The notes: generated by a model from the sequence alone, not told the origin. A stretch of DNA of 64,000 nucleotides from an uncultured candidatus Brocadiaceae bacterium (GCA_964510315.1 CAZEAP010000004.1:67092-131091), one strand, 5' to 3'. Numbered from the stretch's first letter, positions 14,838 to 49,489 are shown. A program made the numbers and translations.

Positions 14838-14851
14838 AGAAAGCCCTCTTC

Positions 14852-17375: not shown

Positions 17376-17384
17376 CAGGCAAGA

Positions 17385-17855
17385 ATGGAGCGGACGCTGG
17401 TGTTTTTGAAACCGGATGCCGTCAGGCGCCGCCTGGTGGGCGAGATCATCGCCCGCTTCGAGCGGAAGGGATTCAGTATGCTCGGGCTGAAAATGGTGCA
17501 GCTCAGCGAACGGTTCGTCCGCAACCACTACGGGCAGCACGAGGGGGAGCACTTCTATGAGCCCCTGGTGCGTTACGTCACCAGCGGGCCCGTGGTGGCG
17601 CTCGTTCTGGAGGGAAAGAACGCGGTCACGGTGGTGCGCAGAATGCTGGGCGAAACCTTCGGTTCGGGTTCGGCACCGGGAACCATCCGCGGGGACATGG
17701 CCCTGAGCGACCGCTTCAACCTGGTGCATGCCAGCGACAGCTCCGAGGCGGCCCGCCGGGAGATAGAGCTTTTCTTCGAAGAGGCCGAGCTGTTCAGCTA
17801 CCCTGAGGAAGCCACCCGATGGATATACGATCAGAGCGGCCCCGAGCCGATTTGA
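17385..17855 (+). CDS. ndk: Nucleoside diphosphate kinase
   Basis: ERTLVFLKPDAV, GTIRGD, N.VHASDS catalytic His. Confidence 0.97.
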   Translation: MERTLVFLKPDAVRRRLVGEIIARFERKGFSMLGLKMVQLSERFVRNHYGQHEGEHFYEPLVRYVTSGPVVALVLEGKNAVTVVRRMLGETFGSGSAPGTIRGDMALSDRFNLVHASDSSEAARREIELFFEEAELFSYPEEATRWIYDQSGPEPI

Positions 17856-17877
17856 GCAAAAAGGCAGGAGGAAAACG

Positions 17878-28880: not shown

Positions 28881-29131
28881 AATACGGATTCACGAAGCTG
28901 CAACATCCCGTCCGGGGGCGGCAAAACGTTCGACTTGCCTCCGAGTGCGGTGGCAGGCCACCGCTCTGCCGTTGGCGGGGCTCCCGGGGTGTACGCCCTC
29001 CTCCGCCCCTGTCAACATCCGGGCGCGCGCGGCGGCTCGGATGCTTGATAGGGGGCTCCATAGTGGGTAGACTCCGGGAAGAGCAAAGGAGCGGGCCGGG
29101 ACACTACTGCGGGGATGCGACCGGAGAACGC

Positions 29132-30208
29132 ATGACCGACGAACTGAGCCACAGGGAGCGGGTGAGGCTCGCGCTGGAGCACCGGGAGACGGACCGCGTG
29201 CCGATCGCCATGGTCTGCTCCGGCATCAACGCGCCGGCGCGGGCGGAGCTGGAAGGCTACCTCGACCGCGAGCGGGGCATTACGGTCGAGCAGTACCTGG
29301 CGCCGTTGATCGACATAAAGGGGGTGGGACCGGCCTATGTCGGGCCGGCGCTGCCGGAGCGGACCGATGTCTGGGGCGTCCGCCGCCAGCCGGTCAGCTA
29401 CGGGTCGGGGCACTACGAGGAGATCGAGCACTATCCCCTGGCCGACGCCGAGACGGTCGACGATATCATCGCCCACACGTGGCCGGAGCCCGACTGGTAC
29501 GACTACTGCGTGATGCCGGAGCGGATTGCGGCGGTCCAGGAGTCAGGTCCGTTCTGCCTTATGGCGCAGAACGGCAACATCTTCGAGACCTCGTGGTATA
29601 TGCGCGGTTTCGAGCGGATATTCATGGACCTGGCGCTCCGGCCGGGGCTCGCCCACGCCATCTTCGAGCGGGTCTGCGACTTTTACTGCGAGCATTTCCG
29701 GCGGCTTCTGGAGGCGGCCGAGGGCGAGATCGACCTGGTCTTCACGGCCGACGACATCGGCGGGCAGAACGGACTGCTGATGTCGTTGGACATGTGGGAG
29801 GAGAACCTCAAGCCCTACCACGCCCGGCTGAACCGCGTGATCCACGGTTTCGGCGCGAAGGTCATCTACCACTCCGACGGATGCGTTACCGACGCGGTGC
29901 CCGGGCTGATCGAGATGGGCATCGACGTGCTCCAGGCCCTGCAGTTCGACGTGAAGGGCATGGAGCCGACCGACCTGAAGGAGCGGTTCGGGGACCGGTT
30001 GTGCTTCGAAGGGGGCGTCAGCGTGCAGCACACCCTGCCGTTCGGCACGCCGGAGGAGGTGAAGCAGGAGGTGCGGGAGAGGATCGAGGTGCTTGGCGCC
30101 GGCGGGGGTTACATCTGCGGCCCCTCCCACGCCATCCAGGCCGGCACTCCGCCGGCGAACATCGTCGCACTGTTCGACACGGCGGCCCGTCACCGGCCCG
30201 GGAACTGA
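29132..30208 (+). CDS. Uroporphyrinogen decarboxylase (URO-D/MtaA) family protein
   Basis: RERV..AL.H.E.DRVP, D.WG, DDIGGQ, HSDG, GGVSVQ..LPFGTPEEV, SHAIQ. Confidence 0.9.
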   Translation: MTDELSHRERVRLALEHRETDRVPIAMVCSGINAPARAELEGYLDRERGITVEQYLAPLIDIKGVGPAYVGPALPERTDVWGVRRQPVSYGSGHYEEIEHYPLADAETVDDIIAHTWPEPDWYDYCVMPERIAAVQESGPFCLMAQNGNIFETSWYMRGFERIFMDLALRPGLAHAIFERVCDFYCEHFRRLLEAAEGEIDLVFTADDIGGQNGLLMSLDMWEENLKPYHARLNRVIHGFGAKVIYHSDGCVTDAVPGLIEMGIDVLQALQFDVKGMEPTDLKERFGDRLCFEGGVSVQHTLPFGTPEEVKQEVRERIEVLGAGGGYICGPSHAIQAGTPPANIVALFDTAARHRPGN

Positions 30209-30219: not shown

Positions 30220-31062
30220 TCAGCGGGCCTCCTGCTGTTCGGCGGCGGCGGAGAGGGTAATGGAATCCCCCTTCTCGCAGCCGAGCCGCTCCGCGGCCGA
30301 TCCCTTGTTGACGGCCACCTCCAGATAGCCGCTGCTGCCGATCAGGGCCACCAGCTCGCCCTCCGGACGGTCGGCGTACGCCCTGGCCAGCCCCTCCATC
30401 CGCTGGCGCTTCACCCGCACCTCGACCTTGTCGGGCGGCACGCCGAGGCTTCTGCGCATGGTGCCTTCACGCATGTTGGTGATGAGGTTGCCGAACTGGT
30501 CGATGTAGATGATCTCGCCCCGCAGGCTGCCGTCGGCCGTCCGGACCGGGTTGGGCAGTTGGAGGCGGTGCATGTGGCTGGCCGTCGGCCCCAGCTTCGA
30601 GGGCTCCAGGCCCTTCGCCAGATGAGCGGCCACCGGCGCGAAGACGTCCCGCCCGTGGAACGTGGTGCTGGTCTCCTCCAGGAAGTAATCCCGGGCCGTC
30701 ACCCTGCGGACCTCCTCCCGCCCGCCCTCGTCGGCGATCACGCTCAACAGGCCGTTGTCCGGGGCCAGGAAAACCTGGTCGTTCGTCCGCATGTAGAGCA
30801 CGGCGCGCTCGGTTCCCACCCCGGGGTCGACCACGCAGGTGAAGATGGTCTCGGGCGGGAAAAACCGGTAGGAGGCGGCCAGCACGAAGGCCGCTTCGGC
30901 GATGTCCTGGGGGACGATGTTGTGGGAGAGGTCAATGATGTCGGCGTCGTCGCAGATGCCCCGAATGACGCCTTTCATCACGCCGACGTAGCTGTCCTTG
31001 AAACCGAAGTCCGTCAGCAGCGCGATTGGTGGAGCGGTCTTGTGGAAGGTGAACCGAGCCAT
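30220..31062 (-). CDS. SAM hydroxide adenosyltransferase (DUF62; chlorinase/fluorinase superfamily)
   Basis: LLTDFG..D.YVGVMKG, VVDPGVGT.R, PDNGLL, TFHGRD.FAP, ID.FGN. Confidence 0.93.
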   Translation of the reverse strand: MARFTFHKTAPPIALLTDFGFKDSYVGVMKGVIRGICDDADIIDLSHNIVPQDIAEAAFVLAASYRFFPPETIFTCVVDPGVGTERAVLYMRTNDQVFLAPDNGLLSVIADEGGREEVRRVTARDYFLEETSTTFHGRDVFAPVAAHLAKGLEPSKLGPTASHMHRLQLPNPVRTADGSLRGEIIYIDQFGNLITNMREGTMRRSLGVPPDKVEVRVKRQRMEGLARAYADRPEGELVALIGSSGYLEVAVNKGSAAERLGCEKGDSITLSAAAEQQEAR

Positions 31063-31670: not shown

Positions 31671-32435
31671 TTACAGGCCCATGTCCCGCAGCGCCTGCAG
31701 GCTGCGCCCGGGCACCTCGAAGCCCAGACCGTCGCTGCCCCCTTCCTCCACGACGAACCACCTGGTGTTCTGGTTCCGCTCGATGACTTCGAAGACGGTT
31801 TCCCAGTCCACATCGCCGTCGCCGAGGACGCCGCCCTCGGGCTTGTTGTGGTCCTTCAGGTGGATGGAGCGGGCACGGTTCGGAAACCGCTTGAGCATCG
31901 CGATGGGATCGCCGCCGCCACCCATGCAGTTGCCGATGTCCAGCTGCATGATGACCTCCTCGCTGGTCTGGTCGAACAGCCGGACCCATGCCACTTCGCC
32001 CTCGACCTCCTCGAAGTCGAACCCGTGGGCGTGGTAGCCCACGAACATGCCCTCCTCGGCGACCTTCTCGGCGGCGTCGTTGAGGATGTCGGCCAGCTCG
32101 CGGATGGTCTCCACCGAGGACATGCGCCGGGGATCGGCGGCGATAACCAGGCAACGGTTGCCCAGGATGCGGTTGAACTCCACCGTCGTCTCCAGGTTGT
32201 CCTTCAGCGCGACGGTTGCCAGGTGGATGCCGCAGCAGACCAGGTTGGTGTCGTCGTACATCGCGCGGATATCTTCGGCGGAGTGGCCCATCCACTCCAG
32301 CGCCTCGCCGGTGTAGCCCCACGGCTCGGCGCCCACGTAGCCTGTGTCGGCAACCTTCCGGAGCGTGGCCGGCAGGTCCTGCTTCACCTCGCCGCGCACG
32401 GCGAACAACTGCAGTGCAATCGGTATGTCGTCCAT
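31671..32435 (-). CDS. Sugar phosphate isomerase/epimerase TIM-barrel protein
   Basis: LQLFAVR, YHAH, QLDIG, IHLKD, VVEE. Confidence 0.9.
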   Translation of the reverse strand: MDDIPIALQLFAVRGEVKQDLPATLRKVADTGYVGAEPWGYTGEALEWMGHSAEDIRAMYDDTNLVCCGIHLATVALKDNLETTVEFNRILGNRCLVIAADPRRMSSVETIRELADILNDAAEKVAEEGMFVGYHAHGFDFEEVEGEVAWVRLFDQTSEEVIMQLDIGNCMGGGGDPIAMLKRFPNRARSIHLKDHNKPEGGVLGDGDVDWETVFEVIERNQNTRWFVVEEGGSDGLGFEVPGRSLQALRDMGL

Positions 32436-32644: not shown

Positions 32645-34168
32645 GTGAAAGCCAGGAACGTACTGCTCATCCACACCGACCAGCAGCGTTGGGACAGCCT
32701 CGGGTGCATGGGCAATCCCTGCGTGCGCACGCCCAACATCGACCGGCTCGCCTCCGAAAGCAGCGTCTTTACCCGGCACGTGGTCTCCAACGCCGTCTGC
32801 ATGCCTTCGCGGGCCACGCTGATGACGGGCCTGTATCCTCCGGCCCACAACGCGTGGAACAACGGCGTGCCGCTGAACCGGCGGGTGTATGCCGACACGT
32901 CCGAGCCGCCCGGCAGCCACGTGCCGCCCCCGCTTACTCCGGAGCCGCCGACCATGGCGGACGTCTTCGCGGCGGCCGGCTACGATACGGTGTCCTTCGG
33001 CAAGCTCCACCTCACGCCGTTCCTTGCGCCCGCCTCCCGGGCCTACCCGGAGTCCAGCGCCTGCTGGGCGGAAGGGTCGCTCGACGACTGGCACGGGCCC
33101 TACTACGGGTTCCGCTACGTCGATCTACTCCCGGGCCACGGGGAGGGCCTGTGCCGGCTCGGGCACTACGGGGTCTGGCTGGAACGGGAGCATCCGGAAG
33201 TGCGGGAGCGCGTGCTGGCGCACCGAAGCGAGCGTCCCCGGCCGGTCCCGCCGGTGGGCGACCTCTACGAATCGCTGCTTCCTTCGGAGCTTCACCACTC
33301 GGCGTGGCTTGGGGAGCGGTTCTGCCGATACCTCGAGCGGGAACGTCCGACCGACAGGCCCTTCTTTGCGTTCGTCGGCTTCCCCGATCCGCATCATCCT
33401 TTCACGCCGAGCGCCGACGTGCTGGAGCAGTTCCGCGACTGTCCCGTGCACGAACCCACCGATCTGGAGGGCCGGTGCCTGCGGGGCTCGCCGGCCGAGG
33501 CGAAGCTGCGCGGCGAGGGCATCTCCACACCAATGGAACAGGTGCCGGAGGAGCAGCGAAACACGATCATCCGGCATACCTACGCCATGGTCTACCAGAT
33601 CGACATGGCCGTCGGGCGGATGCTCGACGCTCTCCAACGGGCGGGGCTGCGCGAGAAAACCATCGTGATCTTCACCAGCGATCACGGGGAGTTCCTCTGC
33701 GACCACGGCTTGTTGCGCAAGGCGTTGTTCGCCTTCGACACACTCCTCCGGGTGCCCTTCGTCATACGGGCACCGGGAGCCGGGCTGCCGGCGCGGGTGG
33801 ACGCGCCGATGAGCAACGCCGACGTGCTGCCCACGCTGGCCGCCCTGACGGGCATCCAGCCGCCGGCCTACCAGCAGGGCCGCGATATTCGCCGCATCTT
33901 GCGGGAAGGCGAATCGCACCACGCCCTCAGCTTCATCGCCGACGGGGATCCGGCGCACCTCAACTACACCGTGTACGACGACCGGTATCGCCTCACCTGC
34001 TATCCCAACGCGGACTGGGTGGAGATGTTCGATCACCGGGAAGACCCCGCGGAGACGGCGAACGTCGCCGGGGAACGAGCCGCGGACCGGCGTCGGCTCC
34101 TCGGTGTACTCAGGGAAACCATGCCCGCGTGCTGGAATCCCATCCTCGCCCGGTGCGCCGCGTGGTGA
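32645..34168 (+). CDS. Formylglycine-dependent (Cys-type) sulfatase
   Basis: TDQQRWD, CMPSRATLMTG signature, GKLH, DPHHP, TSDHGE. Confidence 0.93.
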   Translation: MKARNVLLIHTDQQRWDSLGCMGNPCVRTPNIDRLASESSVFTRHVVSNAVCMPSRATLMTGLYPPAHNAWNNGVPLNRRVYADTSEPPGSHVPPPLTPEPPTMADVFAAAGYDTVSFGKLHLTPFLAPASRAYPESSACWAEGSLDDWHGPYYGFRYVDLLPGHGEGLCRLGHYGVWLEREHPEVRERVLAHRSERPRPVPPVGDLYESLLPSELHHSAWLGERFCRYLERERPTDRPFFAFVGFPDPHHPFTPSADVLEQFRDCPVHEPTDLEGRCLRGSPAEAKLRGEGISTPMEQVPEEQRNTIIRHTYAMVYQIDMAVGRMLDALQRAGLREKTIVIFTSDHGEFLCDHGLLRKALFAFDTLLRVPFVIRAPGAGLPARVDAPMSNADVLPTLAALTGIQPPAYQQGRDIRRILREGESHHALSFIADGDPAHLNYTVYDDRYRLTCYPNADWVEMFDHREDPAETANVAGERAADRRRLLGVLRETMPACWNPILARCAAW

Positions 34169-34182
34169 ACCGTGTCGGACGC

Positions 34183-34191
34183 TGCTACAAT
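34183..34191 (+). promoter_or_regulatory. Possible extended -10 promoter for glycyl radical enzyme operon
   Basis: TGCTACAAT (TGn plus TACAAT) about 100 nt before ATG 34291. Confidence 0.4.
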
Positions 34192-34290
34192 GAAGTACAC
34201 GGCCCGAGGCTTTGTAATTGGAGACCATAGCGGCCTGTTGAGAAGCCGGACCCGATCCCCGTTCCTGAGCAGGCTCCTGGAGGAGTGCGT

Positions 34291-36456
34291 ATGTCGCGTC
34301 CGGCGTCCCTGGCGGTACCCGGTCTTGCGGATGTTCTGGAGCTGCGTCTGCCGGCCGAGCTGAAGTCCCTCCGCGACACGGCCCGCAGACGCCAGCAGCA
34401 AGAGCACGGCCGGTGCGTCGAGCTGACACTCATCGACGCCCGTAGCTGGGCGGAACACACCGACGACGAGCCGTGGCTGATGTGGCGCGCCCGAAGGACC
34501 GCCGCGCGCCTGGAGGGAATGCCCATTCACCTGGAGCCGGGCGAGACGATCGTGGGCAGGCCCCTGCTGCGAACCCCCGCCGCGGCGGAGGAAGGTCCGC
34601 TGGATGAGGCCCGAAAGGCACTCGAATCCATGCCGCCGTTCCCCGGCGGCGATCCAGGTCATTTCCACCCCGACTACGAGAAGCTGTTCCATCTCGGTAT
34701 CGGCGGCATACTCGACGAAATCCAGGAACGCGCCGCCGCCGAAGGGGAACAGCGGGTTTTCTACGATGCCTGTCGCGTCGCGATGAACGGCATGGCGACC
34801 TACGTCCTCCGTGTCGGAGAGGCATGCTCCGGCATGGCCGAGTCGGACCGCGAGCACGAAGCGACGTGGCGAGACCTCGCCGAGATGTGCCGCCGCCTGG
34901 CCTCCGAGCCGCCCGCCACGTTCCACGAGGGCCTTCAGCTCATGTTCCTGGCTCAGATAGCTCTGTGGTTCGGGGACGGGCACGCACTGACCAGTCCGGG
35001 ACGCGTGGACCGGACGCTGCGGGGTTTCTACGAGGCCGATTTGGCCGCCGGCAGACTGACGCATCGCGAGGCGCTGGAGCTGCTGTGCTGTCACTTCATC
35101 CAGATGAACCGCATTCTCTGGCCCGGCTCCGCCATAGCGGTGCTGCTCGGAGGGCGGGACGCCGCCGGGCGGGACGTAACCAACGAGCTGACCTACCTGT
35201 GCCTGGCCGCTCGCGCCGCTACCGGGCTCGTCTATCCGACGGTCGCAGTTGCCTGGCACGAGGGCACGCCGGATGAGCTGATGGACTTCGCGGTCCGGAT
35301 GCTCGGAACCGGAATCGGCGATCCGGCCCTCTTCAACGACGAAGTCATCGCGGAGGGCCTGCGCGACCACGGCGTCGCGGAGGGTGACCGCCACAACTAC
35401 GTCAACTCCACCTGCGTCGAGATCAAGATCGCCGGCGCCTCCAACATCTGGGTGACCCAGCCTTACTTCAACTGCCCCGCGGCGCTGCTGGCGGTCATCG
35501 AGCGGGCTGCCGAGGAGCCGGAGAAGGGGCCGGCGACGTTCGATGAGCTTTCGGCGCAGGTCAAGGACGAACTGGCGAGGAGAATCGCCGAGGCGGCCGA
35601 ACGCCTGGACGACCTCTGGCGCCGCAGGGCCAGGCACGGCTGCTTCCCGCTGGCAAGTTGCCTCATACGAGACTGCCTGCGGGAGGTCAGGGACTACGAC
35701 CGGGGCGGGGCGCGCTACAACTGGGTCGAGAACTCGTTCGTCGGGCTCGCCAACCTTGCGGACGGTCTGCTGGCGGTCAAAAGGCTTGTCTACGAGGACG
35801 GGGAACTGACCCCGGCGCGCCTTCACGAGATACTTGAGGCGGACTTCGAGGGCCACGAAGCCCTGCGACAGAGGATCCTTCACGAACTTCCCAAATACGG
35901 CAATGACGTTGACGAGGTCGACCGGCTGGCCGTCGAGTTCGCCGAGTTCCTTATCGAGCGCACCGAGAGACACACGGTCGGCCCGCATCGCTACGTGCCG
36001 GGATTCTTCTGCTGGGTTCAGCACGAACGGCTCGGCTCGGGGACCGGCGCCACCCCGGACGGGCGCAGAGCGGGGCTGCCGCTGGCCAACGGGGCCGGGG
36101 CGGCCCAGGGCAGGGAGATGAACGGGCCCACGGCGGCGGTCCTCTCAGCGACGAAGTGGAGCCACCAAGCCGTCCTCGGCGGGCTGGTGCACAACGCCCG
36201 GTTCGCACAGTCGATGTTCCGCACCGAGTCGGACAGACGGGCGGTGCGCGACGTGCTGGAGACCTACCTGCGTCGGGGAGGCTTCCAGGTGCAGGTGAAC
36301 GTCGTCGGAACCGAGGACCTTCGTGATGCCCAGCAGCATCCGGAGCGCCACCCCCACCTGCTGGTCCGGGTTGCGGGCTACTCCGACTACTTCACGCATC
36401 TGAATCGCAACATGCAGGACGAGATCATCCGCCGCACCGAGTTCGAAGCAATCTGA
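34291..36456 (+). CDS. Glycyl radical enzyme (PFL-like superfamily, unassigned subfamily)
   Basis: C-terminal LVRVAGYSDYF glycyl motif, active-site STCVE, TPDGRRAG.PL. Confidence 0.92.
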   Translation: MSRPASLAVPGLADVLELRLPAELKSLRDTARRRQQQEHGRCVELTLIDARSWAEHTDDEPWLMWRARRTAARLEGMPIHLEPGETIVGRPLLRTPAAAEEGPLDEARKALESMPPFPGGDPGHFHPDYEKLFHLGIGGILDEIQERAAAEGEQRVFYDACRVAMNGMATYVLRVGEACSGMAESDREHEATWRDLAEMCRRLASEPPATFHEGLQLMFLAQIALWFGDGHALTSPGRVDRTLRGFYEADLAAGRLTHREALELLCCHFIQMNRILWPGSAIAVLLGGRDAAGRDVTNELTYLCLAARAATGLVYPTVAVAWHEGTPDELMDFAVRMLGTGIGDPALFNDEVIAEGLRDHGVAEGDRHNYVNSTCVEIKIAGASNIWVTQPYFNCPAALLAVIERAAEEPEKGPATFDELSAQVKDELARRIAEAAERLDDLWRRRARHGCFPLASCLIRDCLREVRDYDRGGARYNWVENSFVGLANLADGLLAVKRLVYEDGELTPARLHEILEADFEGHEALRQRILHELPKYGNDVDEVDRLAVEFAEFLIERTERHTVGPHRYVPGFFCWVQHERLGSGTGATPDGRRAGLPLANGAGAAQGREMNGPTAAVLSATKWSHQAVLGGLVHNARFAQSMFRTESDRRAVRDVLETYLRRGGFQVQVNVVGTEDLRDAQQHPERHPHLLVRVAGYSDYFTHLNRNMQDEIIRRTEFEAI

Positions 36457-36521
36457 AGGGGCCGCGCGGTGCGGCGCGCCTGCCCCGGCGGCTCCATCGA
36501 GAAGCAGAGGGCTGTCAGGCA

Positions 36522-37376
36522 ATGAATGAAGTCGGTCGAAACATTCTTCTCACCGGAGGCTCGGGGCTCGTCGGGAGGGCTCTCGCCCGCTCGCTGCGGC
36601 GGACCCACGAGGTCACGCATTTCGACGTGGTCGATCCCGACGACGCGCTGCCGTGCGTCGTGGGTGACCTGCGCGACAGAGAGGCCCTCGACGCCGCGTG
36701 TCGGGGCAGGGACGCAGTGATCCACGCGGCCGCCCTGCACGGAAGGAAGTGGGCCGAAGCGGGGGATGACGTGGGCTTCGAGGTCAACGTGGTGGGCACG
36801 AAGAACGTGCTGGAGGCCGCCGCCGAGAACGATGTGGAACGCGTCGTGTTCACCTCCTCCATCTGGGCGACCGGTCACGGGGACAGTCCGCCGTACCTGC
36901 CCATCGACGAAGAGCTTCCGCGCCAACCCGCCGAACTTTACGGCCTCACCAAAAAACTCGGCGAGAAGATGTGCGCCTATTGCACGAGCAGGCACGGTGT
37001 CAGCACCATCTGCCTCCGGCCCGGCGGCATCCTGCCGGCCGACGCGCCTCCCGAGCGCCGGGTGGGCCTGCTGTCGGCGGCTGTGGACGTGCGCGACGTT
37101 GCCCGTGCGCACCGGCTGGCTCTGGACGCGTCGCCGTCACTGACGCACGAGGTCTTCATCATCACGGCCGACACCCCGCTGGCCGAGGTTGAACCGGAGG
37201 AGTACTCCGCCGACCCCGGGGGAGTTCTGGGCAGCCGGATCCCCGGACTGGCCGAGGCGGTCGCCGCGGGCCGACTGGAGTTGCCCGTCTTCCGGGAGTG
37301 GTACACCATCGAGAAGGCGCGCCGGATGCTGGGATACGCGCCCGACCACAACTTCGACATCGCGGACTACGCCTGA
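36522..37376 (+). CDS. NAD-dependent epimerase/dehydratase (extended SDR)
   Basis: TGGSGLVG, HAAA, FTSS, YGLTK. Confidence 0.92.
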   Translation: MNEVGRNILLTGGSGLVGRALARSLRRTHEVTHFDVVDPDDALPCVVGDLRDREALDAACRGRDAVIHAAALHGRKWAEAGDDVGFEVNVVGTKNVLEAAAENDVERVVFTSSIWATGHGDSPPYLPIDEELPRQPAELYGLTKKLGEKMCAYCTSRHGVSTICLRPGGILPADAPPERRVGLLSAAVDVRDVARAHRLALDASPSLTHEVFIITADTPLAEVEPEEYSADPGGVLGSRIPGLAEAVAAGRLELPVFREWYTIEKARRMLGYAPDHNFDIADYA

Positions 37377-37386
37377 GGGAGAAACG

Positions 37387-38121
37387 ATGAGACTGGGAGG
37401 CAAGACGGCGCTGGTTACCGGGGCGAGCCTCGGCATTGGTCGGGCCATAGCGCTCGCCTGCGCGGACGCGGGGGCGGACGTGGCCGTCACGGGACGCAGC
37501 GCCGACAGGCTCCGGCCGGTGGCCGAGCGGATTCGCGCCAGGGGTCGCAGGGCGCACGCGATGGAATGGGACGTCAGCGACGTTGCGGCTGCGCCGGACC
37601 GGCTGGAGGAGACAAAGGATGTGCTGGGCGGGCTCGACGTCGTCGTCAACAACGCCGGCGTGCTGCGGCGCGACGGTTCGGGCTTCCCCGACCTCACACC
37701 GGAGGAGTGGGACTACGTGATGGGGGTCAACCTCAGGGGCCTCTACTTCGTCTGCCAGGCCGCCGACAAAGCCATGCGGGAGACCGGCGGCGGCGTCATC
37801 ATCAACATCGCTTCCGACGCCGGCCTTCGGGGCGAGGTCCATCCCTACGGCATCTCCAAATGGGGTGTGGTCGGACTCACGAAGGGGCTCGGAAAACGAT
37901 GCGCCGACCACGGCGTCCGCGTCAACGCCATCGCCCCCGGTCCGGTGGCCACCCGGATGATGGGCTGGGCGGAGGGGGATTCGCTGGAGCGGGAGGGGCT
38001 TCCGCTCGGACGGCTGTCGCGTCCGGAACAGATCGCGGATGTCGCCGTATTCCTCGCTTCGGAGGAGTCGGCCGCGATGTTCGGCGAGGTGGTCGTGGTG
38101 AACAGCCGCACCGCGCTTTGA
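37387..38121 (+). CDS. Short-chain dehydrogenase/reductase
   Basis: TGASLGIG, NNAG, YGISK, VNAIAPG. Confidence 0.93.
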   Translation: MRLGGKTALVTGASLGIGRAIALACADAGADVAVTGRSADRLRPVAERIRARGRRAHAMEWDVSDVAAAPDRLEETKDVLGGLDVVVNNAGVLRRDGSGFPDLTPEEWDYVMGVNLRGLYFVCQAADKAMRETGGGVIINIASDAGLRGEVHPYGISKWGVVGLTKGLGKRCADHGVRVNAIAPGPVATRMMGWAEGDSLEREGLPLGRLSRPEQIADVAVFLASEESAAMFGEVVVVNSRTAL

Positions 38122-38269
38122 GGCGACGAATGGGCGGAGGCGATGTGCAATTCCCTGGAGGTCCCTCTTCCGGTTGCTCCCCGTTGATTCGCCCCGAGGA
38201 GCCTCGCATAATGCGAGAGCGGTCGGATCGGAAGGCGGTTCTGCAGCCTCTCAAAAGGGGAACAGCGGG

Positions 38270-39634
38270 ATGGGTTTCAGGGTAGGCATCTGCGGACTGG
38301 GCCATTTTGGGCGTCGTTTCGTCGAGCTTTTCCAGGCTCACCCCCTCTGCGATGAGGTGGTGCTGGCGGAGCTGCGGGAGGACGTCCTCAGCGACGTTGC
38401 CGAGGAACACGGCGTCGAGCGCACGTGCAAGGACCTCGAACAGTTGTGCGCGACCGACGTGGACGCGGTGGCCATCTTCACCCAGCGCTGGACACACGGG
38501 CCCCAGGCGCTCAAGGCGCTCAGGGCCGGCAAGCACGTCTACTGTGCCGTGCCGGCCGCGGTGACTACGGAGGAGCTGGGAGAGCTGGTGGAGGCGGTCG
38601 AGGAGACCGGCCTGACCTACTGCCTGGGAGAGACCAGCTTCTACCGCCCGCAGGCCACCTGGTGCCGGCGGAAGTTCGCCGCCGGGGACTTCGGTGAGTT
38701 CGTCTACGGGGAAGGCCAGTACCACCATCACATGGCCCACTGGTTCTACCTGCCGTTCTACGACGCCAACGGGCCGGAGTGGAAGCAGTTCGCCAGTGTG
38801 CCGCCGATGTGGTATCCCACCCATTCGGTTTCCCACGTGCTCAGCGTCACCTTCAGCCGGTTCACGAAGGCATCCTGCTTCGGCCGGGTCGACCAGCACG
38901 AGGACGGCCTCTTCGACCCGCACCTGAGCTACTTCGACAACCCGTGGAGCAACCAGTCGGCGCTGTTCCAGACCGCCGACGGGGGCATGGCGCGCATCAA
39001 CGAGTTTCGCCGCACGGGGGCCGGGGAGAGCCGGCAGAGCATCATCGGAACCCGGGGGGCCTACGAGGAGCAGTGTAACCCCCGGCGCGGCGAGGTGACC
39101 GTGCAGCAGCAGATCGACGGCACCGAAGCGGACGCGAAGGAAACCGCCGCCAGTCAGGCGGTCTGGACCGAAATCCGCTGGGAGCAGGACCCCCACGGGC
39201 CCGACGGCAGCTACGATTACGTCAACGCCCAGCACTACATCCATCTCCACAAGGAGGACGTCACCTGCATCCACCGGCTGGACGGCGTGGAGATCACCGA
39301 GGAGAACCTGGGCGACCTGCCGCGAGAATACCTGGGCCGCCGGCACCGGGGGGTTTCCACGGTCCATGAAGTGCAGCGCCTGCCGGAGGAGTTCGTCGGC
39401 CTGCCCAACGGCCACTGCGGATCCCACCAGTTCCTGGTGCAGGATTTCATGGAGGCCATGGACACCGGCAAGCTGCCGCCGAACCACGTATGGCTGGCGG
39501 CTCGCTACAACGCGCCCGGTATCGTCGCGCATGAGTCCTGCAAGCGTGGCGGGGAGATGCTGGAGATTCCCGACTTCGGCAGCCCCCCGGAGGACGCCGA
39601 ATGCATCGACCCGCTGGTCGTGTTGCGCGACTGA
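38270..39634 (+). CDS. Gfo/Idh/MocA family oxidoreductase
   Basis: GICGLGHFG, GKHVYCAVP, YGEGQYHH, YPTHS, GHCGSHQFL. Confidence 0.9.
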   Translation: MGFRVGICGLGHFGRRFVELFQAHPLCDEVVLAELREDVLSDVAEEHGVERTCKDLEQLCATDVDAVAIFTQRWTHGPQALKALRAGKHVYCAVPAAVTTEELGELVEAVEETGLTYCLGETSFYRPQATWCRRKFAAGDFGEFVYGEGQYHHHMAHWFYLPFYDANGPEWKQFASVPPMWYPTHSVSHVLSVTFSRFTKASCFGRVDQHEDGLFDPHLSYFDNPWSNQSALFQTADGGMARINEFRRTGAGESRQSIIGTRGAYEEQCNPRRGEVTVQQQIDGTEADAKETAASQAVWTEIRWEQDPHGPDGSYDYVNAQHYIHLHKEDVTCIHRLDGVEITEENLGDLPREYLGRRHRGVSTVHEVQRLPEEFVGLPNGHCGSHQFLVQDFMEAMDTGKLPPNHVWLAARYNAPGIVAHESCKRGGEMLEIPDFGSPPEDAECIDPLVVLRD

Positions 39635-39907: not shown

Positions 39908-39975
39908 ACGAACAGTGTACCGACGGCCTTACTGCACAGATGGGGTCCCAGGTTGGTATATGGAGAAGGGCTCAC

Positions 39976-42810
39976 ATGGCACGCGGAAAAAGAAAAGGCA
40001 AAGAGAGCTGGCCCGAGGACTACAGGCATCCGGAGGCCGACAGCCCGATGCGGCCGGAGGTGGGGACGCAGGCGCAGTTCCGGAAGAAGAAGGAGCCGCA
40101 GACGTACCGGTACGACTCCTCGCTTGCGCCGGAGATGAACTGGGACGGGCAGAATCCGGCGCGCGAGCTGGGCGAATGGCTTCTGGCCTGCGTGGAGGAG
40201 GCATCGGCCCTCGAGCCGCCTCACCGATTCCCGGAGCCGCGCACTTTCCGGTCGTCGGACGGCGGGATCGTCGAGAGCGTGGACGGGCTGCACGAGGCCG
40301 TCGCCAAGCTCAAGGCCCTGGGTGAGCCCTTCCTGAACTGGGCGGGCAAGGCGGAACGGCTTTCCTTCGACGTGCCGACGCTGCCCCTGTTCGTGCACGA
40401 GCGGCTGAGTACCCACGCCATTATTGAGACACTCAAGGGCCATCGGAAAGACGAGGGCGCGCAGCAGTTGGAGCTCTTCGCTGACCCGCAGCACCCCGTC
40501 TCAGACCAGGTGCTGAAAGCCTACGAGTATCGGGACGACTGGGTGAACCGTCTGATCCTCGGCGACAGCCTGGTCGTGATGAACTCCCTGCTCCACTACG
40601 AGGGGATGGGCGGCCAGGTGCAGATGATCTACATGGACCCGCCCTACGGGGTGAAGTTCGGCAGCAACTTTCAGCCCTTCGTGCGCAGCCGGGACGTGAA
40701 GCACAACGATGACGATTCGCTGACCCGCGAACCGGAGATGGTCCAGGCCTACCGTGACACCTGGGAACTGGGGCTGCACTCCTATCTGTCATACATGCGT
40801 GACCGTCTGCTCCTTTGCCGCGAACTGCTGCACCCGTCGGGCAGTGTGTTCGTCCAGATCGGGGACGAGAACGTGCAGCATGTTCGCGAGGTCTTGGATG
40901 AAGTCTTTGGACCCGACAACTTTTGCTCGCTGATAGCATTCGTGAAGACAGGTGGTTTCAGCCCTACTTTGCTTCCAAACGTTGCGGATTATCTCCTCTG
41001 GTATGCGAAGGACAAAGAACGTGTGACATACCGGCAGCTTCATCAGAGGAAGGACCCGGGCGAAGAGGGAGCCACTCAGTACACGTATGTCGAAGACCCT
41101 GACACCGGTGAAGTGCGCTCAATGACCCAAGAAGAGAGGCAAAACCCAAGCGTGGTCGCATCGACCCATCGGGTTCTCTGCCACGACAACCTGACTGGTC
41201 AGGGGGCATCGGGGAACACGGACCCGTTCGAATGGGAGGGAAAGGTCTTCGAACTGCCTGCCAATAGCCATTGGAAGACGACGACCGAGGGACTGCAGCG
41301 TTTGGCCGAAGAAAACCGGTTGATAGCTATGGGTGACACCCTTCGGTACAAGCGGTATCTCGATGACTTCCCCGTATATCCAATTTCGAACGTATGGACG
41401 GACACGGCGATCAGCGGTTTCGCGGAGAAGAAGACCTACGTCGTCCAGACGAACCCGTCCGTTGTCGAGAGATGTATGCTCATGACAACGGACCCAGGCG
41501 ACCTCGTGCTCGATCCCACCTGTGGAAGTGGCACGACGGCCTATGTTGCTGAGGAGTGGGGCCGGCGCTGGATTACAACTGACGTCAGCCGGGTGCCCCT
41601 GGCGCTGGCGCGGCAGCGGCTACTGACGGCGACTTTGCCCTGGTACCGGCTTCAGGAAGAAGCACGCGGTCCAGCTGGAGGCTTTATCTACGAGCAGAAG
41701 CAAGACGACATCGGGCGCGAGATAGGAGGGATTGTCCCTCACAAGACGCTCAAGGCCATCGCCAATGCCGAGGAACCGGACTACGAGGTGCTTGTTGACA
41801 AGCCTGAGCGAGACAGTGGCGTCACGCGAGTTAGCGGGCCCTTCGTTGTAGAAGCGACGATTCCCACACCTGTCGACTGGGACGCCGACGGCGAGGAGGA
41901 CTCCGGTGTGAATATGGCGGAGCGAGGGGCGTTCCTCGACAGAATGCTCGAGGTGTTGCGGAAGAGCCCCGTCCTCCACCTGGAGGGTAACCGGGCGGTG
42001 ACGCTCAAGAACGTGCGTCTGCCGGCCAAGTCGCTTTCGCTCTCCGCCGAGGCAATGGTCAGCCCGAAGGACCTGGGGCCTCCGGAGACGCTGGAGGACA
42101 TGAAGGAGCAGGCACTGGACGATGCCGGCGGACGGCTGCCGTTCAACGATCAACCGGTGGCCATCGTGTTCGGCCCCGAGAACGGCGCCGTCAGCGAGAA
42201 GCTCGTCTTCGAAGCGGCCCGCGAGGCCCACGTCAAGGACTACGCCCACCTGTTCGTGATCGGGTTCGCCATCCAGCCGAACGCCCGCAAGCTGGTCGAG
42301 GACTGCGCAGAGGCCGTCGGCGTTCCCGCCAGCTACGTGCAGATGACGCCCGACCTGGTGATGGGCGACCTGCTGAAGAACATGCGCTCGAGCGAGATCT
42401 TCAGCGTCTGCGGCCTGCCGGAAGTCGAGGTGCGCGCGGCCGGCGACGGCAAGTACGAGGCCGAGCTACTGGGCATGGATACGTTCGATCCGGCCACGAT
42501 GAAGACCGAGCACCGGGACGGCGACGACGTGCCGGCGTGGTTCCTGGACACCGACTACAACGGCCTCTGCTTCCACGTCTGCCAGGCATTCTTCCCGCGC
42601 ACGCGGGCCTGGGACAGCATCAAGAAGGCGCTGAAGGGCACGCACGATCCCGAGGTCTGGGACCACCTGGCCGGCACGAGGAGCGCACCCTTTGAGGCCG
42701 GAGAGCACGGCCAGATCGCCGTGAAGGTCATCGACGACCGCGGGAACGAGCTGTTGGTGGTCAAAGATCTGGAGGATGCGCGCACCGAAGGAGAGAAGGA
42801 TGGAGCGTGA
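39976..42810 (+). CDS. mod: Type III R-M methyltransferase (Mod), beta-class amino-MTase with long C-terminal extension
   Basis: IYMDPPYG (motif IV) before DPTCGSGTT (motif I); upstream of Res helicase. Confidence 0.9.
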   Translation: MARGKRKGKESWPEDYRHPEADSPMRPEVGTQAQFRKKKEPQTYRYDSSLAPEMNWDGQNPARELGEWLLACVEEASALEPPHRFPEPRTFRSSDGGIVESVDGLHEAVAKLKALGEPFLNWAGKAERLSFDVPTLPLFVHERLSTHAIIETLKGHRKDEGAQQLELFADPQHPVSDQVLKAYEYRDDWVNRLILGDSLVVMNSLLHYEGMGGQVQMIYMDPPYGVKFGSNFQPFVRSRDVKHNDDDSLTREPEMVQAYRDTWELGLHSYLSYMRDRLLLCRELLHPSGSVFVQIGDENVQHVREVLDEVFGPDNFCSLIAFVKTGGFSPTLLPNVADYLLWYAKDKERVTYRQLHQRKDPGEEGATQYTYVEDPDTGEVRSMTQEERQNPSVVASTHRVLCHDNLTGQGASGNTDPFEWEGKVFELPANSHWKTTTEGLQRLAEENRLIAMGDTLRYKRYLDDFPVYPISNVWTDTAISGFAEKKTYVVQTNPSVVERCMLMTTDPGDLVLDPTCGSGTTAYVAEEWGRRWITTDVSRVPLALARQRLLTATLPWYRLQEEARGPAGGFIYEQKQDDIGREIGGIVPHKTLKAIANAEEPDYEVLVDKPERDSGVTRVSGPFVVEATIPTPVDWDADGEEDSGVNMAERGAFLDRMLEVLRKSPVLHLEGNRAVTLKNVRLPAKSLSLSAEAMVSPKDLGPPETLEDMKEQALDDAGGRLPFNDQPVAIVFGPENGAVSEKLVFEAAREAHVKDYAHLFVIGFAIQPNARKLVEDCAEAVGVPASYVQMTPDLVMGDLLKNMRSSEIFSVCGLPEVEVRAAGDGKYEAELLGMDTFDPATMKTEHRDGDDVPAWFLDTDYNGLCFHVCQAFFPRTRAWDSIKKALKGTHDPEVWDHLAGTRSAPFEAGEHGQIAVKVIDDRGNELLVVKDLEDARTEGEKDGA

Positions 42811-43114
42811 GGAACTGCGAACCGAGCTGAAGCGCCGCCTGGAGGATGCCTTCGGGGACCGACTGCAAGGCGTGGTGCTGTACGGTTCCGAGGCGCGGGG
42901 AGAGCCCCGGCAGGACAGCGACATCGACGTGATGGTGTTGCTGGAGGGGCCTATCAACCTGTGGGAAGACCTCAAGACGGGCATCGAGGCCACCTATGAC
43001 CTGACGTTGGAGTTGGGGCGGCCTGTGCATCCGGACCCGGTGGACGCGGCGGAATACGAAAAAGGGGAGTTTGCGCTTTATCGCAACGTGAAACGGGAAG
43101 GAATCGTGCTGTGA
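42800..43114 (+). CDS. Minimal nucleotidyltransferase (MNT) antitoxin
   Basis: LYGSEARGE...DSDIDVMV; overlaps mod stop and HEPN start. Confidence 0.92.
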   Translation: MEREELRTELKRRLEDAFGDRLQGVVLYGSEARGEPRQDSDIDVMVLLEGPINLWEDLKTGIEATYDLTLELGRPVHPDPVDAAEYEKGEFALYRNVKREGIVL

Positions 43115-43509
43115 GCCATGAGTCACAGGATCTGTGGGCGCGTGCGGTGGAGGCATTAGGCGTTGCGCAGAGGGAGGCAGCGCTGAGCCCGGACGCCTCG
43201 GCGTCGCGTGCTTACTACGCGGCCTTCCATGCCGTATCCGCCCTCTTTGCCACGAGAGGCGAGAGCTTCAGGCGACACTCGGCAGTGGAAGCGGCCGTGC
43301 ATCGCGACCTGGTGCGCACGGGGGATTTGAGCAAGGAGTTGGGCGCGGCCTACAGCGCGTTGCTGAGGTTGCGCGAGGTGGGAGATTACGGCGGGGCACG
43401 CCACGTGAGGGCCGACCAAGCACGCGAGGCGGTGGGCGATGCCCGGAAGATTCTTGCGGCGGTCAGTGAGCTGAAACCGGATGAGTTCCACATGCCGGAA
43501 AAGGAGTGA
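43111..43509 (+). CDS. HEPN domain protein (toxin partner of MNT)
   Basis: SRAYYAAFHA, RRHSAV, LREVGDY. Confidence 0.9.
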   Translation: MSHESQDLWARAVEALGVAQREAALSPDASASRAYYAAFHAVSALFATRGESFRRHSAVEAAVHRDLVRTGDLSKELGAAYSALLRLREVGDYGGARHVRADQAREAVGDARKILAAVSELKPDEFHMPEKE

Positions 43510-43513
43510 AGGC

Positions 43514-46500
43514 ATGGCCGACTTCGAGGTGCCGGAACCGATCCTGAATACCCCTTACGAGGAGCCGCAGCAGTACTGGTTCATCCGTGAGGGCGAGTCG
43601 CCGGAGCAGCGCGAGGGCAGACGGCCTTCGGTGGTCTATCCGCCGAGTGACACGCCGGTGAAGTGGAGCATCGAGCCGGAGATTCTGCAGCGCTCCGAGG
43701 ACTTCGCTCCCGGTTACGAGATGGTGCTTGTCAACCTGGTCCGGGAGCGGCGCAAGCAATGGCGGGCCGACGGGTGTCCTGGAGTGACGCGAGTCAGCAA
43801 GGAACTGATGGAGTGGTGGCACCGGGCCGGCCGGAAGACGCCGCTCTGGTTCGCGCAGCTCGAGGCGGCCGAGACGGTCATCTTCCTCACCGAAGCCCGG
43901 CAGGATTACCTGCAAGGCATCGACGTTCCGCTGGACGAGCCCAACCCGAGCCAGAAAGAGGAAGGCATCAAGGCTTTCCTTCGGTATGCCCTGAAGATGG
44001 CAACCGGCGCGGGCAAGACGACGGTGATGGGGATGCTGGCGGCCTGGAGCATCTTGAACAAGGTGAACAACCGGTCGGATGCTCGGTTCTCCGACGTGGT
44101 CCTGATCGTCTGCCCCAACATCACGATCAAGAACCGGCTGCAGGAACTGGACCCCGAACAGGGCGACGCCAGCCTGTACCGCACGCGCGACCTCGTGCCG
44201 CCGCACCTGATGCCCCAGCTCAGCCAGGGCAAGGTCATCGTAACGAACTGGCACCTGTTCCAGTTGCAGGACCCCAGCGCCGGCGACCCCGCCAAAGTGA
44301 AGAAGATCGGCGTCAAGGTAGAGAAGCTGGACACCGTCTACATCCGTGACCGAACAGACACCTATCGCGGCTATCGCTACCTCACGTTGGAGGACTACGA
44401 GCAGCAGGTGGCGACGGGGATGCTGACGGTGCGGGAGGAGTATCGCGACAGCAGCGGCAACCTGGAGAAAGCCGACGTCGTGACCACGAAGTACGTGGAG
44501 AGCGACACCGCGTGGGACCGGCGCGTGCTGGGCCAGGAGATCGGCGGCAAGCAGAACATCCTGGTGATGAACGACGAGGCCCATCACGCCTACCGTATCC
44601 GGCGCGGGGAGGAGGAAGAGGAGACCGAGGAAGAGACCTTCGGGGAGGAGAGCGAGGCCGAGGAGTTCTTCACCGAAGCGACGGTATGGGTGGAGGGCCT
44701 GGACCGCGTCCACAAGATGCGGGGCATCAACTTCTGCGTGGACCTGTCGGCGACGCCTTACTACCTGGGCCGTGTGGGCCAGGAGACGAACAAGCCTTTC
44801 CCGTGGGTCGTGAGCGACTTCGGGCTCACTGACGCCATCGAGTCGGGGCTCGTGAAGATACCGCAGCTCGCGCTGCAGGACCCGAGCGGCGAGGAGCGGG
44901 CGGCTTACTTCAACCTCTGGAAGTGGATTCTGGACCAGCTCACGTCTCGCGAGAAGGGCGGCACGAAGGGCAGTCCGAAGCCGGAGGCGGTGCTGAAGTA
45001 CGCCCACCATCCGATTGCGATGCTCGGCGGTCAGTGGGAGGAGACGCGGCAGGTATGGAAGCGCAACGAGGACGACGACCGCCCGCCGGTCTTCATCATC
45101 GTGTGCAAGAACACGAAGATCGCCGAGGTGATCTACCAGTGGCTGGCCAACGGCGAAGCGCCCGAGGGGATTCCGACGTCCGGGATCGACGCGCTGCGCA
45201 ACACGGACGGCCGCGAAAACACGGTCCGGATCGACTCGAAGGTGGTGCACGAGACGGATAGCGACCACGCGAAGAGCGACCTGGACGCCTGGATGCGGCT
45301 GACGCTGGACACGGTGGGCAAGGAGCAGTGGCCGACTGACTCGCAACGCAGGCCCATCTACCCGGAGGGATTCGAGGAGTTGGCGAACAAGCTGGGCAAG
45401 CCACTACATCCGCCGGGACGGGATGTCCGTTGCATCGTGAGCGTCGGCATGCTCACGGAGGGATGGGACTGCAACACGGTGACGCACATCGTGGGGTTGC
45501 GGCCCTTCATGTCACAGCTTTTGTGCGAACAGGTTGTCGGCCGCGGCCTGCGGCGCACGAGTTATGAGGTGGCCGAGAACGGGAAGCTCACCGAAGAGGT
45601 GGCGCAGATCCTGGGTGTGCCGTTCGAGGTCGTGCCCTACAAGGCCGCGCCGGAGGGGCAGCCCGCGCAGGTCAAGGAGCGGAAGCATGTGCACGCGCTG
45701 CCCGAGAAGGCCAGGTACGAGATCACGTTCCCGCGCGTGGACGGCTATACGCAGGCTATCCGGAACCGGGTTACTGTGGACTGGGATGCGTTGCCGCGGC
45801 TTCGGCTCGACCCGGCCCAGATCCCGCCGGAAGTGCGGATGAAGGCGACCGTGCCGAGCAACGAGGGCCGGCCATCTCTGTTCGGCCCTGGCGGCGAAGT
45901 CCAGATTGACCTCAATCCGTACCGCGAGGGGCGCCGAATGCAGGAGCTTGCGTTCGAAATGGCTGCGGCGATGACGAAGGAACTGGCGAACAACCCCAGG
46001 TGCAACGTGCCGACGCACGTGCTGTTCCCCCAGACGCTGGGCATCGTGCAGCGGTACTTGGCAGAGAAGGTCGATCCCGTGCCGCCCGCCGAGAGAATTG
46101 ATGTTGCCCTCTCGCCGTACTACGGGTGGGCTGTGGAGCGGCTGCGCGACGCGATCCGCGCGGACACGGGAGCCGGCGAGCCGCCGGAGGTGCCCCGTTA
46201 CGAGCAGCACCGCGGCCCGGGCTCAACGGACGAGGTGGACTTCTGGACCAGCCGGGAGGTCTGGACGCCGCAAAGGAGCCACGTCAACTACGTGGTCGCC
46301 GACACGCGGCGCTGGGAGCAGTCGGCCGCCTACCACATCGACAAGCACGATGCGGTGGATGCCTACGTCAAGAACGCGGGTCTGGGATTCGCCATCCCCT
46401 ACGTGCACAACGGCGAGCCGCATGACTACGTGCCCGACTTCATCATCCGGCTGAAGACGGATGGCGACGAGGAGCGCTACCTGATCCTGGAGACCAAGGG

Positions 46501-49056: not shown

Positions 49057-49489
49057 TTGCTGACCCCCGGTTACGAAACGAACCCATTTTCCCGCAGGGC
49101 ATACGCGGGGAAGCACTTACGACACAAAATCCAAATCGGCGTACGGAGCCGGATGTATACGCGAAACCACAGAAAGGACACTTTTGGCTTGCCGCGTCCG
49201 GACGGCCGGGCGGCGGCCATGGCCTCCCGGCAGGACCTTCAGCCGCGGGAGATCGACGTCCGGCGGCTGCAGGAGCATCTGGTAGAGATCGGGAACCTGC
49301 CGGCCGCCGTATCCTCTCCGAATACCGGTGCGACCTGCGCGGCCTGTTCGCGCGTCACGCCGAGTGGGTTCTGGGCCAGAGGACGGAAGAAGGCTGATGC
49401 GGTTGCCCGGCAGGGCCGCTGCTATTACACTGCGAGGCCGGATCCGCGCAAATCAATAATTGACCGAGCAGGTCACGGAAGGAGAGAGG

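Follow-up and report, generated by a model that had tools for sequence, protein, structure and literature searches.

Each of the glycyl radical enzyme (GRE) families assigned in the last decade (CutC, HypD, IslA/IseG, HpsG/HpfG and YbiW/PflD) has opened a new anaerobic pathway, and entire clades of the superfamily still stand without experimental validation in its June 2026 review. Among the described systems closest to the one reported here are the eliminases glycerol dehydratase (GD; 1R8W) and the propanediol dehydratases of the GRE type (PD; 5I2G, 9RCO). The YbiW/PflD enzymes of 'anhydroglycolysis' are sugar-phosphate isomerases with a Cys-x-Glu (CxE) loop which break a C-O bond of their substrate and are cytoplasmic and free of a microcompartment (June 2026 review), and in HpfG/HpfD, according to PMC11489063, a GRE dehydratase acts on the sulfonate 2,3-dihydroxypropane-1-sulfonate (DHPS) before a dehydrogenase takes over the carbonyl product. 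Here we describe a GRE gene in a stretch of 64,000 nucleotides (64 kb) from an uncultured candidatus Brocadiaceae bacterium (the window, meaning the whole stretch; GC content about 66%, source a microbial mat metagenome), which has a sulfatase gene upstream and genes for two short-chain dehydrogenases/reductases (SDRs) and a Gfo/Idh/MocA-type oxidoreductase (Gfo) downstream. We are highly confident that this enzyme belongs to a GRE eliminase family outside all assigned families. Our preferred reading, to which we give an even chance, is that of a CxE-type radical 1,2-eliminase with a sugar-derived substrate, which is broken down in the cytoplasm and may originate from a sulfated glycan.

The enzyme, its active site and its family

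The GRE gene starts with an ATG preceded by the ribosome-binding site GGAGGAG, and its main features are the following:

34291-36456 (+): GRE ('GRE-A'), 721 amino acids, with a PFL-like domain (PF02901, 348 bits) and a Gly_radical domain (PF01228, 85 bits), both above their gathering scores
35404-35430 (+): Cys loop of the GRE, NSTCVEIKI, with the catalytic Cys375 and Glu377 of the CxE motif
36367-36381 (+): glycyl radical motif of the GRE, RVAGY, with Gly696

The loop contains a single Cys with Glu377 two residues on, and N372, S373, C375, V376 and E377 are invariant among 57 family members, as is the glycine motif with Gly696. By alignment, C375-V376-E377 corresponds to C433/E435 of GD, C489/E491 of CutC and C431/E433 of PflD. 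Because of the CxE loop and of a His aligned to His164 of GD, the enzyme can be placed, judging from its residues, among the eliminase/isomerase-type GREs and not with pyruvate formate-lyase (PFL), as had been proposed in a preliminary description of the locus made from the same DNA. PFL identity was rejected, since a single Cys takes the place of the adjacent Cys-Cys pair and the PFL model TIGR01255 gives 89 bits against a cut-off of 994. The single-Cys STCVE loop and the compact size pointed out in that description were both borne out, but the compactness is modest: characterised relatives have 765-850 amino acids, and in the alignment to them the GRE is shorter by about 40 N-terminal residues and about 27 residues in loops.

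None of the NCBIfam equivalog or subfamily models accepts the GRE, every score being far under the cut-off: 400 bits against 678 for TIGR01774 (PFL2/glycerol dehydratase subfamily), 315 against 1109 for NF007437 (PRK09983, PflD-type), 289 against 1000 for NF048009 (HpfG), 274 against 1000 for NF048011 (C-S lyase/DHPS enzyme set), 283 against 1100 for NF043068 (HypD, trans-4-hydroxy-L-proline dehydratase) and 281 against 1050 for TIGR04394 (CutC). The CutC, GD, PD, PflD and YbiW structures score similarly against it (about 265-290 bits) with no favourite, and no solved GRE structure exceeds about 26% identity. An AlphaFold2 model calculated with the 57 family members as input (pLDDT 86.9, pTM 0.91) has the GRE fold, and its best matches in Foldseek are all eliminases, none of them preferred (PD 9RCO and 5I2G, GD 1R8W and CutC, with TM scores of 0.87-0.88 and 24-26% identity). 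The likewise CxE-type YbiW and PflD come close (274-280 bits, TM 0.86-0.87), but differ in the His-Asp pair after their Cys loop, which the window GRE does not have, in the far higher score that the PflD-type model demands, and in their gene context, since no aldolase, kinase or phosphotransferase system accompanies the window family, whose partners are SDRs, sulfatases and a second GRE.

The pocket sets the enzyme further apart. For the residues of the polar pocket in GD and PD, the alignment gives Ala or Gly at position 232 for Ser282 (Ala232 in the window), Val388-Thr389 for His446-Asp447, Phe573 for Tyr640 and Trp575 for Ser642 (Val696 in PD), and these substitutions are invariant or nearly so in the family. 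Asn645 of GD is replaced by His578, which has a counterpart in PflD, whereas GD, PD and CutC have Asn there. Retained are Cys433 (Cys375), Glu435 (Glu377), His164 (His124) and His281 (His231) of GD; the June 2026 review names only the first three of these, with His164 as the acid for the leaving hydroxyl. Taken together, the residues describe an enzyme that would be eliminase-like but with a distinct pocket. Its likeness to GD and PD, which comprises the fold, the glycine motif, the CxE loop and the two His residues, probably extends to the logic of a radical 1,2-elimination; unlike these enzymes, it is only about 25% identical to them, 65-120 residues shorter and without adjacent activase or microcompartment genes. 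Membership in the GD, PD, CutC, HypD, HpsG/HpfG or PflD families was rejected on account of the scores below cut-off and the differing pocket residues.

These same comparisons bear on the idea that the GRE, outside any microcompartment, dehydrates a small diol, be it ethylene glycol, glycerol or 1,2-propanediol; fermentation of fucose or rhamnose would yield this diol, and the aldehyde formed from it would be converted by the SDRs. Its best matches do include 1,2-propanediol dehydratases (9RCO, 5I2G) and glycerol dehydratase (1R8W), the residues aligned to His164 and His281 of GD are kept, and a GH95 gene, a hydrolase like that of the L-rhamnonate pathway, an aldehyde dehydrogenase (ALDH) and a zinc-dependent alcohol dehydrogenase (Zn-ADH) occur at some loci of the family. 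We nevertheless regard a small-diol dehydratase as improbable, given the low score with TIGR01774, the family-wide replacement of the GD/PD pocket residues, the equally good scores of CutC and PflD, the frequent tandem arrangement with a second GRE and the absence of shell genes. For want of a shell gene, a microcompartment-associated enzyme was rejected as well. Far more remote still, and in our opinion extremely unlikely, is the reading of the GRE as a lyase that cleaves the C-S bond of a sulfonate or the C-N bond of an amine. Such an enzyme would share the CxE loop, which is common to CutC, IslA/IseG and HpsG, but the CutC, HpsG and HpfG models yield 274-289 bits against cut-offs of 1000-1050, and F573-C574-W575 of the window GRE falls, by offset and not by direct alignment, on the strand which in the C-S lyases IseG/IslA holds the second Arg of the Arg-Gln-Arg triad that binds the sulfonate. 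Moreover, the annotated neighbourhoods showed neither a sulfite reductase nor a transporter for sulfonates or amines nor any microcompartment gene, and the window differs from the HpfG/HpsG context in its sulfate-ester hydrolases and carbohydrate enzymes. The sulfonate, which the preliminary description had entertained as a substrate, is accordingly not favoured by the C-S lyase and DHPS dehydratase models.

Relatives of the enzyme are numerous. Among the 5.8 billion proteins searched are more than 120 clusters with 58-72% identity to the GRE and lengths of 716-760 amino acids, whose labels refer to metagenome-assembled genomes (MAGs) of Brocadiia/Planctomycetota, Lentisphaerae, Poribacteria, Chloroflexi, Armatimonadetes and Roseibacillus and whose most specific name is 'PFL family'. 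Genome and metagenome scans extend the family to Kiritimatiellota, Spirochaetales, Sumerlaeia and Anaerolineales. The window GRE is thus representative of one clade without experimental assignment, strongly conserved with 54-72% identity in MAGs of at least eight phyla and found in uncultured bacteria only, in mats, sediments, aquifers, lakes and sponges. In a library of 50%-identity clusters, one full-length representative (916 bits) is all that remains of the family, and the next relatives reach at most 671 bits. After this gap follow dozens of compact GREs (685-740 amino acids, 35-45% identity, 671 to about 350 bits), which have in common the loop [N/H]STCVEI[T/K], the motif RV[A/G]GYSDYF and a match that includes the first 120 residues. 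The match of canonical GREs (780-830 amino acids) starts only around residue 120 and reaches at most 374 bits. Dozens of these compact clusters (P0123-P0189) are all metagenomic. The score distribution suggests a tight, probably isofunctional family within a large compact clade, and the compact [N/H]STCVE GREs appear to make up a large and so far unexplored branch within the superfamily. Cluster look-ups for ten family representatives led to metagenome sequences only, the best label being 'formate C-acetyltransferase'; the June 2026 review contains no enzyme like the compact GRE, and nothing on this family was found in the published literature. The kind of enzyme is known, and the position outside the characterised families, which the preliminary description had anticipated, is reinforced by the comparison: no description was found in the literature of the family or of the clade of compact GREs around it, nor of the family's pocket and gene partners.

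Gene partners in the window and at other loci

Around the GRE gene, the window contains the following genes and motifs:

29045-30208 (+): URO-D/MtaA-like protein, 387 amino acids, Pfam URO-D; possibly an associated gene
31671-32435 (-): xylose-isomerase-like TIM-barrel protein, 254 amino acids, Pfam AP_endonuc_2, divergent from the sulfatase; a possible member of the cluster
32645-34168 (+): S1 sulfatase of the Cys type, 507 amino acids, Pfam Sulfatase (PF00884, 162 bits)
32798-32812 (+): formylglycine motif of the sulfatase, CMPSR, residues 52-56
36522-37376 (+): extended SDR, 284 amino acids, Pfam Epimerase (106 bits)
37387-38121 (+): classical SDR, 244 amino acids, Pfam adh_short (170 bits)
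38270-39634 (+): Gfo/Idh/MocA-type oxidoreductase, 454 amino acids, Pfam GFO_IDH_MocA; a doubtful member of the unit

The co-oriented sulfatase, GRE, extended SDR, classical SDR and Gfo genes, with the sugar-isomerase-like gene divergent from them, are all present and intact as first described, with slightly amended starts: judged from the translations, the classical SDR begins at 37387 rather than at the long open reading frame start 37189, and the Gfo gene likely at 38270. Intergenic gaps measure 122 nt between sulfatase and GRE, 65 nt between GRE and extended SDR and 10 nt between the two SDRs, and no terminator-like site was found on the coding strand from the sulfatase through the SDRs. 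The GRE is most probably co-transcribed with the upstream sulfatase and the two downstream SDRs; the Gfo gene follows the classical SDR at a distance of 148 nt, and a separate promoter-like site precedes it at 38184-38212.

The extended SDR has its GxxGxxG motif as TGGSGLVG and its YxxxK motif as YGLTK, falls into the size class of the uronate dehydrogenases and finds among its top PDB matches such dehydrogenases (6MFH, 3RFT) together with short extended SDRs of the NAD-dependent epimerase/dehydratase type. Its classical companion, with the motifs TGASLGIG, NNAG and YGISK, resembles glucose 1-dehydrogenase, FabG and KduD, and no NCBIfam equivalog model has its cut-off reached by either of the two. 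The Pfam match of the Gfo protein is confined to the N-terminal Rossmann domain, and the TIM-barrel protein shows a weak IolE-like match.

About 50 independent GRE loci (referred to by L numbers where necessary) were assembled from genome and metagenome scans and compared in four ways: through tblastn searches with a set of proteins from the neighbourhood, through clustering of the called genes, through Pfam and through gene distance from the GRE. The extended SDR lies near the GRE in eight loci besides the window and immediately adjacent to it in 6 of the 47 other loci; the classical SDR accompanies the GRE in six further loci, in five of them at position 1-2. Loci with one or both SDRs belong to Planctomycetota, Lentisphaerae, Spirochaetales and Poribacteria, the close orthologues having 54-76% identity, and classical SDR orthologues (59-76% identical) follow the GRE and the extended SDR in L002, L003, L005, L007 and L029. 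The GRE and the two SDRs are therefore syntenic, and they probably work together. This arrangement, a GRE eliminase gene beside genes of NAD(P)-dependent dehydrogenases, is that of HpfG/HpfD, and by analogy the adjacency suggests that a carbonyl product may be processed at once.

The preliminary description does not mention the partners found most often with the GRE, which are another compact GRE, a GRE activase and URO-D-like genes. This second, paralogous GRE (about 30% identity, loop GGGCTET, motif RIGGYS) directly adjoins the GRE in about 11 loci (L003, L005/L037, L006, L007/L038, L026, L041, L042/L043, L050, L052, L053/L055 and L061). The pair is often accompanied by a single activase, and L052 contains five GRE genes in a row with one activase. 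Genes of a GRE activase (355 bits with TIGR02494, cut-off 174) stand beside orthologues in eight loci, for example in the order paralogue, GRE, activase (L041) or paralogue, activase, GRE (L042). The search for the activase, which the preliminary description had recommended, thus succeeded at other loci and failed in the window, where a motif scan found no CxxxCxxC radical-SAM open reading frame and tblastn matched ferredoxin motifs only; that neither an activase nor a microcompartment shell protein is encoded in these 64 kb had been said before and holds, and no second GRE was found there either. When the genome collection was scanned with an alignment of five activases taken from orthologous loci, none of the matches listed (at least 80 loci) came from a MAG with this GRE, and the loci among these matches all lie beside other GRE types (24-46% identity).

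URO-D-like genes occur at most six genes from the GRE in seven other independent loci (L012, L018, L020, L034, L041, L053/L055 and L060), and no corrinoid protein was seen beside them. Five such genes surround the GRE, activase and paralogue of L055, and two PhyH-type Fe/2-oxoglutarate dioxygenase genes (1735-2535 and 4331-5257 of that locus) lie amid them, directly upstream of GRE, activase and GRE; the combination of oxygen-requiring dioxygenases with oxygen-sensitive GREs may reflect aerobic and anaerobic routes to one substrate. Looser partners are a different Gfo type of 345 amino acids (seven loci), 2-hydroxyacid dehydrogenases (six loci), a RidA/chorismatase-like protein of 363 amino acids (five loci) and Amidohydro_2 proteins (five loci).

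Several other genes of the window should be mentioned. Three genes upstream of the GRE, at 30220-31062 (-), lies a gene for a SAM hydroxide adenosyltransferase or (R)-S-adenosylmethionine hydrolase-like protein (SAM_HAT_N and SAM_HAT_C domains; 209 bits with NF058624, under its cut-off). Directly after the cluster, a type III restriction-modification pair occupies 39940-46666 (+) whose DNA methylase has 956 and whose Res-type helicase/endonuclease has 1061 amino acids; of the two small genes between them, one (43111-43509) encodes a HEPN domain. Two large membrane proteins are encoded in tandem at 10294-14837 (+), the first with a BatA 'aerotolerance regulator' N-terminal domain and the second without any Pfam match. 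Finally, the region 57416-62853 (-) contains an indolepyruvate/2-oxoacid:ferredoxin oxidoreductase-like gene (thiamine pyrophosphate and 4Fe-4S domains) and at least one phenylacetate-CoA-ligase-like gene, while a second such gene and an intervening ACT-domain gene were read from the translation only; the oxidoreductase/ligase set fits an anaerobic fermentative lifestyle of the host.

Carbohydrate context and the place of the sulfatase

A signal peptide is absent from the sulfatase, whose start is preceded by an in-frame stop, and a twin-arginine translocation (Tat) signal from the Gfo protein, so that all products of the cluster are expected to be cytoplasmic, and a periplasmic pathway was rejected on these grounds. 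With the substrate-specific models, the sulfatase remained below the cut-offs (203 against 481 for arylsulfatase, 158 against 433 for choline sulfatase), and it has no close characterised relative.

As far as gene content can tell, all contexts of the GRE look carbohydrate-like and cytoplasmic. At the locus of the closest orthologue (L035, 72% identity), the GRE is flanked by a Gfo gene, a sulfatase, a TIM barrel and two more sulfatases; L004 has the GRE directly adjoined by an orthologue of the window sulfatase (48% identical) and then a GH95 gene (fucosidase family), and in L044 the GRE, a RidA/chorismatase-like gene, a sulfatase and an AP_endonuc_2 gene are all co-directional. Sulfatase and FGE-domain proteins surround the paralogue, GRE, extended SDR and classical SDR of L037, and very large HZS_alpha plus FGE-sulfatase proteins flank that locus (4011-7820 and 13841-18223). 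The order in L040 is a LacI regulator, then GRE, extended SDR, classical SDR and a polyol-type Zn-ADH, and an anSME-like radical-SAM/SPASM gene lies nearby (1-1110, -); this gene and the FGE proteins of L037 are further ties to sulfatase maturation. Besides LacI, AraC regulators are found at GRE loci.

The non-phosphorylative pathway of L-fucose and L-rhamnose proceeds through a dehydrogenase, a lactonase, a sugar-acid dehydratase, a 4-dehydrogenase and an FAH-type hydrolase. A comparable set is found in L038 (Lentisphaerae), where a GntR regulator, a 2-hydroxyacid dehydrogenase, an FAH-type hydrolase, an ALDH, two GREs, three SDR-type genes and an Amidohydro_2 gene (the lactonase family) stand together. 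The best model of the FAH-type hydrolase is that of 2,4-didehydro-3-deoxy-L-rhamnonate hydrolase (217 bits, against an equivalog cut-off of 500), and no classical sugar-acid dehydratase, be it enolase-type or IlvD-type, was found within 10 kb. By analogy, this set resembles the non-phosphorylative deoxyhexose pathway minus its usual sugar-acid dehydratase, in whose place the two GREs stand; the window itself, unlike that pathway, has no hydrolase, lactonase or ALDH.

Another line of evidence comes from loci without the GRE. A scan for orthologues of the extended SDR gave only three new close loci, none of which contains a GRE: in L081 the orthologue follows two sulfatases and precedes an SDR, in L079 it lies between an ABC transporter and two sulfatases, and in L080 it adjoins a heparinase II/III-like lyase and a Gfo gene. 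The SDR pair would therefore have a tie of its own, apart from the GRE, to glycans that are sulfated or contain uronates or deoxy sugars, and this tie, indirect as it is, provides the best argument for a role of the window sulfatase in the same route. On balance, we think the substrate somewhat more probably sugar-derived than otherwise; its identification as a derivative of a 6-deoxyhexose (fucose or rhamnose) or of a uronate is rather unlikely to prove right as it stands, and participation of the sulfatase is to be held tentatively, as something we doubt slightly more than we believe.

These doubts arise from the comparison of loci. Sulfatases lie at most three genes from the GRE in just 5 of about 50 loci (L001/L035, L004, L005/L037, L030 and L044) and are no commoner there than in the outer flanks, which goes against the sulfatase as a pathway partner as first proposed. 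The functional unit may accordingly consist of the GRE, the extended SDR and the classical SDR only, elsewhere joined by the second GRE and the activase, with the sulfatase, the Gfo gene and the TIM barrel as chance neighbours, an alternative that we take seriously while thinking it less probable than its negation. With matching at the level of orthologues, a sulfatase accounts for 3 of 211 genes within three genes of the GRE and 2 of 219 further out, and several sulfatases are scattered in the flanks of L001, L003, L018 and L025. The window has two AP_endonuc_2 genes, the second at 2684-3598 (+), as well as a 3-keto-disaccharide-hydrolase-like gene at 49460-50230 (+); with 'sugar' families repeated in this way, such genes can easily adjoin any gene by chance. 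TIM-barrel (AP_endonuc_2) genes were seen near the GRE in four other loci (L001/L035, L022, L034 and L044), and the 454-aa Gfo gene, apart from its own promoter-like site, has a convincing orthologue at no other GRE locus and a single weak match. On the other hand, sulfatase, AP_endonuc_2 and GRE recur as a trio in three different arrangements (window, L035 and L044), the 48%-identical sulfatase of L004 is directly beside the GRE, orthologues of the extended SDR adjoin sulfatases even where no GRE is present, and the window sulfatase is cytoplasmic, on the same strand and just 122 nt upstream.

The preliminary description had treated the cluster as one candidate pathway with three oxidoreductases. 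This is supported for the two SDRs, which lie directly downstream with their orthologues in several phyla; the Gfo gene is doubtful as the third oxidoreductase, and the sulfatase recurs at the family level only. The comparison of family and neighbourhoods suggested at the time leaves the GRE outside every characterised cluster and two of its five neighbours conserved, the Gfo gene and the TIM barrel being essentially not.

Proposed reaction and route

Several of these observations weigh against a radical 1,2-eliminase in sugar catabolism as we propose it, among them the sulfatase frequencies and the isolated Gfo gene. To them must be added that the neighbourhood is variable family-wide, many orthologues being without any of these partners, that the window holds no activase for the GRE, that no RNA run was found to contain the GRE gene, and that no cultured organism with the family emerged from the genome and metagenome scans or the cluster look-ups. 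The active-site residues, moreover, are not those of any characterised eliminase, which leaves the fold, the CxE motif and the His as the sole grounds for the proposed chemistry.

With this in mind, the reaction might proceed as follows. An activase encoded elsewhere in the genome, outside the window, would install the radical on Gly696, from where it would pass to Cys375. The Cys375 thiyl radical would take an H atom from a carbinol carbon of the substrate, and Glu377 would deprotonate the hydroxyl of that carbinol. The resulting ketyl radical could then expel the oxygen substituent of the vicinal carbon, probably protonated by His124, and return of the H atom from Cys375 would leave a deoxy-carbonyl product, making the enzyme a dehydratase/lyase or a ring-opening isomerase. 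The substrate of the route that we infer would be a small sugar-derived compound (a monosaccharide, a sugar acid or a polyol), possibly released from a sulfated glycan. Desulfation by the sulfatase would supply the free sugar, the SDRs would carry out NAD(P)-dependent oxidation or reduction before or after the radical step, and a single oxygen-sensitive radical elimination would take place at a non-activated C-O bond.

A bolder possibility, which we consider very unlikely, is that the GRE and its tandem paralogue perform a radical reaction new for GREs on O-substituted sugars, for example the beta-elimination of a sulfate ester or ether substituent adjacent to a carbinol carbon. If true, this would mean an anaerobic, formylglycine-independent desulfation or ether cleavage leading to deoxy-keto sugars, which the co-conserved SDRs would reduce, and thereby a route for the anaerobic breakdown of sulfated or otherwise modified glycans in mats, sediments and aquifers.

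Planctomycetota, Lentisphaerota and Kiritimatiellota are major glycan degraders in anoxic habitats, and we know of no radical step in sulfated-glycan/carbohydrate breakdown. A concrete set of targets for biochemistry consists of the GRE, the two SDRs and an activase taken from the locus of an orthologue, and the context of the enzyme points to carbohydrate breakdown, possibly of sulfated glycans.

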